Of a stretch of DNA of 64,000 nt, positions 52,901 through 55,900 are shown one piece after another. Origin of the DNA: a plasmid; the NCBI RefSeq assembly GCF_056746865.1, contig NZ_JBWKMP010000004.1; one strand, given 5' to 3'. The position numbers were made by a program. The stretch's first letter is position 1. The number at the start of each line of letters is the position of its first letter.

Positions 52901-55900
52901 CCCGATGGGCACAAAAGAGGACCCGTTCTGGCAGGGTTCAGGACGTACCATTTTTGCGGAAGCGGCGTACCTGATGCGTAATGACCCCAACCGCAGCTAC
53001 AGCAAACTGGTGGACACACTGCTTTCCATCAAAATCGAAAAACTGCGTACCTTCCTGCGTAATTCACCGGCGGCCAACCTGGTGGAAGAGAAAATTGAGA
53101 AAACGGCGATTTCCATCCGTGCTGTGCTGACCAACTACGTGAAAGCCATCCGTTACCTGCAGGGGATTGAGCATAACGGTGAGTCTTTTACCATCCGTGA
53201 CTGGATGCGGGGTGTCCGGGAAGATCAGAAAAACGGCTGGCTGTTTATCTCGTCGAATGCCGACACCCATGCCTCCCTGAAGCCGGTGATCTCCATGTGG
53301 CTGTCCATTGCCATTCGTGGTCTGCTGGCAATGGGAGAAAACCGTAACCGTCGTGTGTGGTTTTTCTGTGATGAGCTACCCACGTTACACAAACTGCCGG
53401 ACCTGGTGGAGATCCTGCCGGAAGCCCGTAAGTTCGGTGGCTGTTATGTGTTTGGTATCCAGTCCTATGCCCAGCTGGAAGATATCTACGGTGAGAAAGC
53501 GGCTGCCACGCTGTTTGACGTCATGAACACCCGTGCCTTTTTCCGTTCTCCCAGCCATAAGATTGCAGAGTTCGCTGCCGGTGAGATTGGTGAGAAAGAG
53601 CACCTGAAAGCCAGCGAGCAGTACTCCTACGGTGCTGATCCGGTACGTGACGGGGTATCGACCGGTAAGGATATGGAGCGCCAGACGCTGGTCAGTTATT
53701 CCGACATTCAGTCTCTGCCGGATTTGACCTGTTATGTCACCCTGCCCGGACCGTATCCGGCAGTAAAACTCTCACTGAAATATCAGGCACGTCCGAAGGT
53801 TGCCCCTGAGTTTATTCCGCGTGACATCAACCCGGAAATGGAGAACCGCCTGAGCGCCGTACTTGCCGCAAGGGAAGCAGAAGGTCGTCAGATGGCCAGC
53901 CTCTTCGAACCGGATGTGCCGGAAGTTGTTTCCGGAGAAGACGTGACTCAGGCTGAACAGCCGCAACAGCCGCAACAGCCGCAACAGCCGCAACAGCCGC
54001 AACAGCCGCAACAGCCGCAACAGCCGCAACAGCCGCAACAGCCGCAACAGCCGCAACAGCCGGTGTCTCCCGCCATCAACGATAAGAAGTCAGATTCAGG
54101 TGTGAATGTTCCGGCAGGGGGGATCGAGCAGGAGCTGAAAATGAAACCGGAAGAAGAGATGGAACAGCAACTGCCACCCGGGATCAGTGAATCCGGTGAA
54201 GTGGTGGATATGGCCGCTTATGAGGCATGGCAACAGGAAAATCATCCGGACATCCAGCAGCAGATGCAGCGTCGTGAAGAGGTGAACATTAATGTGCACC
54301 GGGAGCGCGGGGAGGATGTTGAGCCGGGAGATGATTTCTGATGATGAGTATCGCGCAGGTCAGATCGGCCGGAAGTGCCGGTAACTATTATACCGACAAG
54401 GATAATTACTATGTGCTGGGCAGCATGGGAGAACGCTGGGCCGGCAGGGGGGCTGAACAGCTGGGACTGCAGGGCAGTGTCGATAAGGATGTTTTTACCC
54501 GTCTTCTGGAGGGAAGGCTGCCGGACGGAGCGGATCTAAGCCGCATGCAGGATGGCAGTAACAGGCATCGTCCCGGCTACGACCTGACCTTCTCCGCCCC
54601 CAAAAGTGTCTCCATGATGGCCATGTTAGGTGGCGATAAGCGCCTGATTGATGCACATAACCAGGCCGTGGACTTTGCTGTTCGTCAGGTGGAGGCGCTG
54701 GCCTCCACACGGGTGATGACGGACGGACAGTCAGAAACGGTGCTGACCGGTAATCTGGTGATGGCACTGTTTAACCACGACACTAGTCGCGATCAGGAAC
54801 CACAGTTACACACGCATGCGGTGGTGGCTAATGTCACGCAGCATAACGGTGAGTGGAAGACACTGAGCAGTGACAAAGTGGGGAAAACGGGGTTCATTGA
54901 GAATGTGTACGCTAATCAGATTGCCTTTGGCAGGCTCTATCGGGAAAAACTGAAAGAGCAGGTTGAGGCGCTGGGCTATGAAACCGAAGTGGTGGGTAAG
55001 CACGGTATGTGGGAGATGCCGGGCGTACCGGTGGAGGCCTTTTCCGGACGCTCACAGGCTATCCGAGAGGCCGTCGGGGAAGATGCCTCGCTAAAATCCC
55101 GGGATGTGGCGGCACTGGATACGCGAAAATCCAAACAGCACGTCGATCCTGAAGTCAGAATGGCTGAATGGATGCAGACGCTGAAGGAAACCGGGTTCGA
55201 CATCCGGGCATATCGTGACGCGGCGGATCAGCGTGCGGAGACCCGCACGCAGGCGCCCGGGGCTGTTTCACAGGAGGGGCCGGATGTGCAGCAGGCGGTG
55301 ACACAGGCGATTGCCGGATTAAGTGAACGAAAAGTGCAGTTTACGTACACGGACGTGCTGGCCAGAACAGTCGGCATACTGCCGCCGGAAAATGGTGTGA
55401 TTGAACGGGCACGCGCCGGTATCGATGAGGCCATCAGCCGTGAGCAACTCATCCCCCTTGACCGTGAGAAGGGGCTGTTCACGTCCGGGATTCATGTGCT
55501 CGATGAACTGTCAGTCCGGGCACTCAGTCGCGATATCATGAAACAGAACCGGGTGACCGTACATCCGGAGAAAAGTGTCCCCCGGACGGCCGGCTACAGT
55601 GATGCCGTCAGTGTTCTGGCACAGGACCGTCCGTCGCTGGCCATTGTGTCCGGGCAGGGCGGTGCAGCCGGGCAGCGTGAGCGGGTGGCTGAACTGGTCA
55701 TGATGGCCCGGGAGCAGGGGCGGGAGGTGCAGATTATCGCTGCTGACCGTCGCTCGCAGATGAACCTGAAGCAGGATGAACGGCTGTCCGGTGAGCTGAT
55801 AACCGGACGTCGTCAGCTGCCGGAAGGCATGGCCTTCACGCCGGGCAGTACTGTTATCGTTGACCAGGGCGAAAAACTCTCCCTGAAAGAGACGTTAACC

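Follow-up and report, generated by a model that had tools for sequence, protein, structure and literature searches.

The 9-bp repeat in traD of an F-like plasmid: a documented variable-number tandem repeat, probably situated in a length-tolerant tether of the coupling protein

The window, by which we mean the whole stretch of 64,000 nucleotides of plasmid DNA that was analysed, contains on its + strand the gene traD, with a perfect 9-bp tandem array towards its 3′ end, together with the genes of two proteins, TraM and TraI, that feature in the discussion below. The relevant features are as follows.

27059..27442, + strand: traM, encoding the relaxosome protein to which the TraD tail binds (open reading frame; similarity to F TraM).
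52098..54341, + strand: traD, encoding an F-type type IV coupling protein of 747 amino acids (open reading frame, profile matches, TrwB structures).
52611..53780, + strand: nucleotide-binding/DNA-binding motor domain of TraD, residues 172–561 (PF10412, E = 4e-117).
53880..54173, + strand: unconserved, predicted disordered spacer that includes the array, residues ~595–692 (AlphaFold2 and alignment).
53956..54062, + strand: full tandem array with partial end units (TRF; in the published register, CAGCCG followed by 11 x CAACAGCCG).
53958..54062, + strand: codon run CAG CCG (CAA CAG CCG)x11, encoding QP(QQP)11, TraD residues 621–655 of 747.
54210..54338, + strand: conserved C-terminal module, consisting of helices at 705–727 and an acidic tail (alignment, AlphaFold2).
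54315–54338, + strand: last 8 TraD residues (...VEPGDDF), the TraM-binding/specificity tail (role from PMC3159463 and PMC10939261).
54341..59611, + strand: traI, encoding the relaxase/helicase, directly downstream of traD (open reading frame; traI is annotated in every relative fetched).

The product of the reading frame at 52098..54341 (+) is matched over residues 1–747 by NCBIfam NF010254 (1683 bits, cutoff 1221) and also by TIGR02759 (834 bits, cutoff 521); Pfam recognizes TraD_N (PF12615) and TrwB_AAD_bind (PF10412) within it, and the TrwB structures (PDB 1E9R/1GL6) align to residues 161–573. Judged from these matches at the level of sequence, the protein is an F-type TraD. Its stop codon overlaps the ATG of traI, 280 nt downstream of the array, and both traM and traI appear to belong to the same transfer region as traD, the predicted product of which has an acidic C-terminal tail with a terminal aromatic residue. 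Residues 58–127 of the encoded TraM are identical at 64 of 70 positions to the tetramerisation domain of F TraM, which was crystallised together with the TraD tail (PDB 2G7O/3D8A).

A preliminary description of this DNA had reported eleven identical 9-bp units at 53961–54059, and this is exact: read directly, the interval consists on the + strand of 11 perfect CCGCAACAG units. TRF places the array at 53956–54062 with a period of 9, 11.9 copies and 100% matches, and the score of 214 that it assigns is the highest TRF score across the window. Perfect 9-mer periodicity over 90 bases has a chance expectation of ~64000 x 4^-90; the array is, therefore, no chance event. It lies in frame within the 747-codon reading frame, and the QP(QQP)11 that it encodes at residues 621–655 bears out the proline/glutamine repeat that had been attributed to the C-terminal region of TraD.

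The position of the array within the protein was judged from a conservation alignment of 36 TraD sequences (58–99% identity) and from an AlphaFold2 model built on the same alignment. Invariant or near-invariant columns end at F603 and restart at G695, the conserved columns of the C-terminal module extending from G695 to G744. In the model, pLDDT is mostly 70–90 in the motor domain; it is below 50 for residues 595–692, where the means of 10-residue blocks are 22–33 and no secondary structure is predicted, and this segment is flanked by conserved helices at 579–594 and 705–727. Being rich in Gln and Pro, unconserved, predicted to be unstructured and located between conserved modules, the segment would fit the description of a disordered interdomain linker. 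F TraD has exactly the same 92 residues after the array, the tail ...EDVEPGDDF among them, and published work assigns both TraM recognition and plasmid specificity to the last ~8–15 residues of the protein (PMC3159463; PMC10939261). Because the repeat-containing segment is unconserved and predicted to be disordered, and because the TraM-binding tail lies downstream of it, the array is, on the model, a spacer within the C-terminal extension and not a TraM contact. The earlier placement of the array in a tail that contacts TraM is thus correct as to region, the C-terminal extension, and imprecise as to the contact itself, the determinant of which is the last ~8–15 residues. Apart from the tail peptide complex, a search for experimental structures of the TraD C-terminal extension returned none. 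Q-linkers and P/Q-rich tethers, of which the linker of FtsK, a related DNA translocase, is an example, connect functional modules and are Gln/Pro-rich, poorly conserved, flexible and tolerant of changes in length, as the TraD spacer would be; compared with a linker of the FtsK type, the TraD spacer differs in that it is a perfect, genetically unstable repeat, not a degenerate stretch of low complexity, and in lying C-terminal to the motor domain.

The tract is the documented 9-bp variable-number tandem repeat (VNTR) of traD in F-like plasmids, and its detection here is a rediscovery: CAACAGCCG units follow one another head to tail in the 3′ region of traD, and their number varies among near-identical plasmids, as in the published VNTR. 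Lang 2011 (Mol Microbiol) described a variable ‘QQP motif’ in F-like TraD, 5 residues long in F and 23 in R1, which has the nucleotide-binding domain on one side and the TraM interaction domain on the other and the role of which was stated to be ‘under investigation’; it was considered there that variation in the TraD C-terminus may underlie plasmid-specific differences and diversification driven by phage (PMC3245843). The segment in the window is the same one, the QPQQP of F being equivalent to 1 unit, the R1 motif to 7 units and the 35 residues of the window to 11. Wang 2018 (mSphere) found 4, 6, 8, 9, 11, 12 or 13 CAACAGCCG units in traD of F33:A-:B- plasmids, with a mode of 11 (PMC6052338, Table 2), and some of those plasmids are identical save for the traD repeat and the 6-bp repeats of yddA (PMC6052338). 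Elsewhere, a pair of plasmids is separated by 1 nt and one traD unit (PMC10237293), clonal Salmonella Enteritidis plasmids carry 2–23 traD units (PMC7311658), and an 81-nt traD indel between pSLT and the 14028S plasmid had been noted earlier (PMC3391293).

The closest known system is the group of pHN7A8-like F33:A-:B- IncFII plasmids (PMC6052338), which agree with the window in repeat unit, gene, position and backbone and for which the 11 units of the window are the mode. There is no difference of substance; the present sampling widens the range to 5–18 units where the TraD background is identical. The virulence plasmids of Salmonella (PMC7311658, PMC3391293) have the array at the orthologous site and with the same CCG-CAA-CAG unit as the window, although in the pSLT type the flanking TraD sequence is only ~83–86% identical and a CCA CAG CCC variant closes the array. 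The window also carries the companion 6-bp repeat of yddA, at 18455–18517. Bacterial coding VNTRs and MLVA loci, amongst them the GCTACT repeat of yddA, resemble traD in having perfect arrays of short units that change by whole units, presumably by slippage; unlike such loci generally, the traD array always keeps the frame and is situated inside an essential transfer gene. It resembles a contingency locus in being a hypermutable tandem repeat within a gene, but the ON/OFF switching by frameshift or altered promoter spacing that marks such loci was not found, the unit being 9 bp and the frame being kept in 116 of 117 relatives.

That last figure comes from a survey of copy number. A 642-bp query spanning the array matched 3,983 plasmid records and, amongst complete E. 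coli genomes, 3,213 records from 2,803 of 5,426; two evenly spaced samples were taken down the rankings (58 and 59 records). The difference in length from the window was an exact multiple of 9 bp in 116 of these 117 sampled relatives. The sole exception, CP027580 (+7 bp), has no annotated traD, and CCG and CCA units occur together in its array. The spans of the alignments imply 0 to 23 units across the sample, these implied counts being one too low for the lineage with CCA units, where the left flank is 9 bp shorter, and exact counts were preferred wherever a locus had been fetched. Exact counts range from 1 to 24 units overall. Where the unit has CCG and the flanks are identical or nearly so to those of the window, 1 (F), 5, 6, 7, 8, 11, 14, 15 and 18 units are found, and all of these values other than that of F occur with flanks identical to the window; a second E. 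coli lineage, with CCA units and flanks that are ~92–93% identical, has 1, 10, 12, 14, 23 or 24, and at the orthologous site in Salmonella there are 10 units in pSLT and 1 in the 14028S plasmid. In complete E. coli genomes whose flanks match at 100%, the best 60 rows give counts of 6, 7, 8, 11, 14, 15 and 18, of which 11 is the commonest (at least 29 records). The plasmid pR2-1L is 99.7–99.9% identical to the window and thus a distinct sequence. The whole TraD protein, the array itself excepted, is identical between the window and the 14- and 15-unit alleles, and in the relatives that were fetched traD is annotated as intact at 1–24 units. The expansion and contraction in frame that had been predicted, and for which a comparison of repeat number among related plasmids had been proposed, are thus borne out by steps of 9 bp; copy number is far from invariant across the lineage.

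On a broader view, three or more diverged TraD lineages have arrays at this site, a QPQQP seed is kept in TraDs down to ~74% identity, and TraDs of the IncFIIK type are without the repeat altogether. Modal counts are 11 in CTX-M-55 F33 plasmids and 8 in a clade of KPC plasmids. Synthetic TraD alleles of 1–10 units on the background of the window were also looked up, and those with 1, 2 and 3 units were found. A frequency spectrum of alleles from such look-ups was abandoned, as verified RefSeq alleles of 11, 14 and 15 units were likewise absent, which is a limitation of the collection.

How units are gained and lost can be approached through the composition of the arrays. Fifteen of the 16 arrays of at least two units are pure at the DNA level, synonymous third positions included, the exception being a locus of 12 units (L011) in which CCG and CCA are mixed. 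The unit itself goes with lineage: CCG-CAA-CAG occurs in the lineage of the window and in pSLT, and CCA-CAA-CAG in the second E. coli lineage. As a pattern read from sequence, this purity would indicate amplification in situ with a turnover that far outpaces point mutation, and it gives no hint of codon selection. Expansion may have recurred at one spot because the minimal CAG CCG CAA CAG CCG already holds a short direct repeat. A hairpin or other secondary structure as the driver of instability was considered and rejected, 197 of 200 shuffled controls folding at least as well as the array single strand (z = +2.0). Since the single strand has no hairpin potential, we infer that simple slipped-strand misalignment is the likely mechanism.

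Public records show one change directly. The plasmid pD53-1-2 of the donor D53-1 is 80,564 bp long and has 8 units; its counterpart in the filter-mating transconjugant TC6, pTC6-1, is 80,555 bp long and has 7 units with flanks identical to those of the donor, and the two plasmid lengths are exactly 9 bp apart. The change from 8 to 7 could also stem from faulty assembly or from a donor population that was already mixed. As a separate observation, the 9 bp that are extra in the TC6 plasmid relative to that of TC9 are an mph(A) duplication. The number of units is unchanged in D97-1 and TC9, in three EC2648-R strains, and in HB42 and four THB42-F strains; the array therefore does not alter at every transfer. 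Taken together, the quantisation in 9-bp steps, the identical flanks, the change from 8 to 7 and the purity of the arrays point to replication slippage.

The explanation that we consider probable, with moderate confidence, is that the array is a slippage VNTR in a permissive, disordered tether, that its variation is mostly driven by mutation and near-neutral, and that it has little or no effect on transfer. According to this scheme, strand slippage in the course of replication, probably of conjugative replication as well, would add whole units to a pure head-to-tail array or remove them, always in frame, each unit contributing Gln-Gln-Pro to the predicted disordered spacer. That spacer would join the motor domain of TraD to the conserved C-terminal module, the last residues of which dock on TraM, and it would tolerate nearly any length, from 5 to 74 P/Q residues. 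It is because of this apparent tolerance that we infer the length polymorphism to be mostly a near-neutral by-product.

Several indirect lines of evidence favour near-neutrality. Plasmids with 1 (F), 7 (R1), 7–8 (the filter-mated pD53-1-2 and pD97-1-1), 10 (pSLT) and 4–13 units (F33:A-:B-) are classical conjugative plasmids, have been transferred in vitro according to the records fetched, or are typed as conjugative by MOB-suite; overall, natural alleles of 1–24 units occur in plasmids typed as conjugative and alleles of 7–8 units have been transferred in vitro, these all being comparisons across non-isogenic backgrounds. The contribution to transfer of the last 15 residues of TraD is 10^4–10^5-fold in F and pED208, and that of the rest of the ~150-residue C-terminal domain only ~10–30-fold (PMC10939261). 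Salmonella plasmids with a truncated traG, in which the authors expected a defect in conjugation, still drift between 2 and 23 traD units (PMC7311658), and the unrelated yddA array varies likewise on the same F33:A-:B- plasmids (PMC6052338). The near-neutral reading is favoured because of this variety of counts in conjugative plasmids, the IncFIIK-type TraDs that do without the repeat, the ceiling of ~10–30-fold, and the drift that accompanies a truncated traG and is shared by yddA; the evidence suggests that any effect of repeat length on transfer is small at most. Against near-neutrality, an effect of length inside the ~10–30-fold range is possible, since that is what the remainder of the C-terminal domain contributes (PMC10939261), and stabilising selection, as opposed to clonal inheritance, could account for the modal values of 11 and 8. 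Searches of the literature on the traD repeat turned up accounts of its polymorphism and no study in which repeat number was varied and transfer measured; PMC3338209 had no bearing on the matter.

The main alternative is that the array is an adaptive rheostat: the length of the spacer would determine how far the six TraD tails reach towards TraM tetramers at oriT, or with what avidity they bind them, or it would alter the role of TraD in the entry of RNA phage or in the mobilisation of foreign plasmids, and selection would act on the variants that slippage supplies. Such a role would accord with an array that is hypermutable and always in frame, with arrays that have arisen or persisted at one site in three or more diverged TraD lineages, and with the conservation of the QPQQP seed down to ~74% identity. 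It would also draw on the published avidity model, in which several flexible TraD tails engage TraM tetramers (PMC3159463), on the ~10–30-fold contributed to transfer by the C-terminal domain outside the tail (PMC10939261) and on the speculation of Lang 2011 that pressure from phage lies behind diversification (PMC3245843). However, F transfers very efficiently with one unit, the distribution of counts is broad (1–24) and without a shared optimum, and variation goes on in plasmids in which truncation of traG is expected to impair conjugation (PMC7311658). The 6-bp yddA array, which is non-coding-like, varies in the same way on the same plasmids, as would be expected if mutation were the whole cause; a 9-bp unit is incapable of ON/OFF switching; and a search of the literature found no paper in which copy number was linked to a phenotype. 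On balance, a rheostat seems unlikely, though its chances are not negligible. The more specific proposal that slippage generates subpopulations differing in tether length, and hence in conjugation efficiency, in promiscuity towards foreign relaxosomes or in susceptibility to RNA phages of the F pilus, is in our view doubtful, and marginally the less credible of the two.

It could also be supposed that the repeat acts as nucleic acid, through the structure of the traD-traI mRNA, the speed or coupling of translation, or a site for recombination or protein binding. The overlap of the traI start codon with the traD stop, 280 nt downstream of the array, and the uniformity of synonymous positions within each array might be read in this way, but uniform synonymous sites are expected from slippage alone, and the array single strand is less structured than its shuffled controls. 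The third-position base differs between the E. coli lineages, being CCG in one and CCA in the other, and no specific sequence is therefore conserved; moreover, the gene is retained at copy numbers of 1 to 24, and the array contains no ribosome-stalling Pro-Pro motifs. Such a function is accordingly very improbable. Least credible of all is that the array, or its exact count of 11, is an artefact of sequencing or assembly: short-read assemblies do break at the array, several large groups of partial TraD proteins ending exactly at ...GEDVTQA (P0018, 4849 members; P0137, 299 contigs), but no fewer than 29 independent, complete plasmid records from E. coli share the identical 642-bp segment with 11 units, 11 is the published, sequencing-checked mode of the plasmid family (PMC6052338), and ordinary reads span an array of 99 bp.

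As a documented VNTR, probably of the near-neutral kind described above, the traD array is mainly useful as a marker for the fine-scale typing of plasmids, and it hampers short-read assembly, in which contigs are broken at this point. If the length of the repeat does tune the transfer rate or the phage sensitivity of IncF plasmids that carry CTX-M, NDM or KPC, a hypermutable switch of this sort would influence the spread of resistance; should the repeat indeed act as a rheostat, epidemic resistance plasmids could re-tune their transfer fast in new hosts.

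Among relatives, thousands of TraD database entries are 'partial' proteins, with lengths of ~596–631 residues (protein groups P0017, P0018, P0102, P0118 and P0137–P0148). In all four of the groups that were inspected (P0017, P0018, with 4849 members, P0102 and P0118), the protein ends exactly at ...GEDVTQA, which is the left edge of the 9-bp traD array, and the lengths of other partial members, at ~614–631 residues (including P0137, present on 299 contigs), fit a break at the same array. The traD array evidently breaks short-read assemblies; copy numbers and the completeness of traD are therefore unreliable in draft genomes. 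Long-array alleles also seem to be missing from the 15-billion-protein collection: the verified TraD alleles from RefSeq that carry 11, 14 and 15 units were not found there on look-up, and alleles with one to three units occur in it, with contig counts from 179 up to at least 1000. Thus, a TraD allele missing from this collection is not evidence of biological absence.

Two further length variants were seen in relatives:

L011 (CP027580.1, E. coli 2013C-4282 plasmid), locus positions 557–670: interrupted traD array of 12 units.
L018 (pTC6-1, the plasmid of transconjugant TC6), at ~29014, end of mph(A): 9-bp tandem duplication (TTCCGCTGC TTCCGCTGC), compared with L019 (pTC9-1, the plasmid of transconjugant TC9).

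The first, in which CCG and CCA proline codons are mixed, is the sole interrupted array among those seen. At 7 bp longer than that of the window, the L011 segment implies a frameshift elsewhere, and traD is unannotated at this locus; L011 may be a recombinant of the two E. coli lineages or carry a decaying gene. The second is a further in-frame 9-bp variant, giving an mph(A) of 915 nt in pTC6-1 versus 906 nt in pTC9-1, and it separates two plasmids that are elsewhere 99.98% identical.

Repeats are also found outside traD in the window itself:

18455–18517: second perfect tandem array, 10.5 copies of CTGCTA, with a coding reading on the minus strand.
15353–15790, 18488–19118 and 23967–24594: three diverged copies of a ~440–630-bp leading-region repeat, 89–98% identical.
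2783–3604 and 6368–7189: two inverted 822-bp copies matching IS26.

The 18455–18517 array matches the yddA 6-bp VNTR of F33:A-:B- plasmids, for which six to nine copies have been tabulated (Wang 2018, PMC6052338). In the published register it reads as ten copies of GCTACT, a count above the published range; minus-strand translation gives a poly-Ser or a poly-Val-Ala run, depending on frame. Each of the three leading-region copies contains TCCCGGCA twice, and the position occupied by the perfect 6-bp array in the 18.4-kb copy is taken in the third copy, at 23970–24020, by a degenerate 18-bp/6-bp repeat. In the relative pR2-1L, these copies adjoin ssb-like and psiA/psiB genes.

In pR2-1L, blaCTX-M-55 is flanked by IS26 copies. 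Taken with the IS26 copies of the window, this arrangement, read in the relative, fits an assignment of the window to the CTX-M-type F33:A-:B- resistance plasmids.
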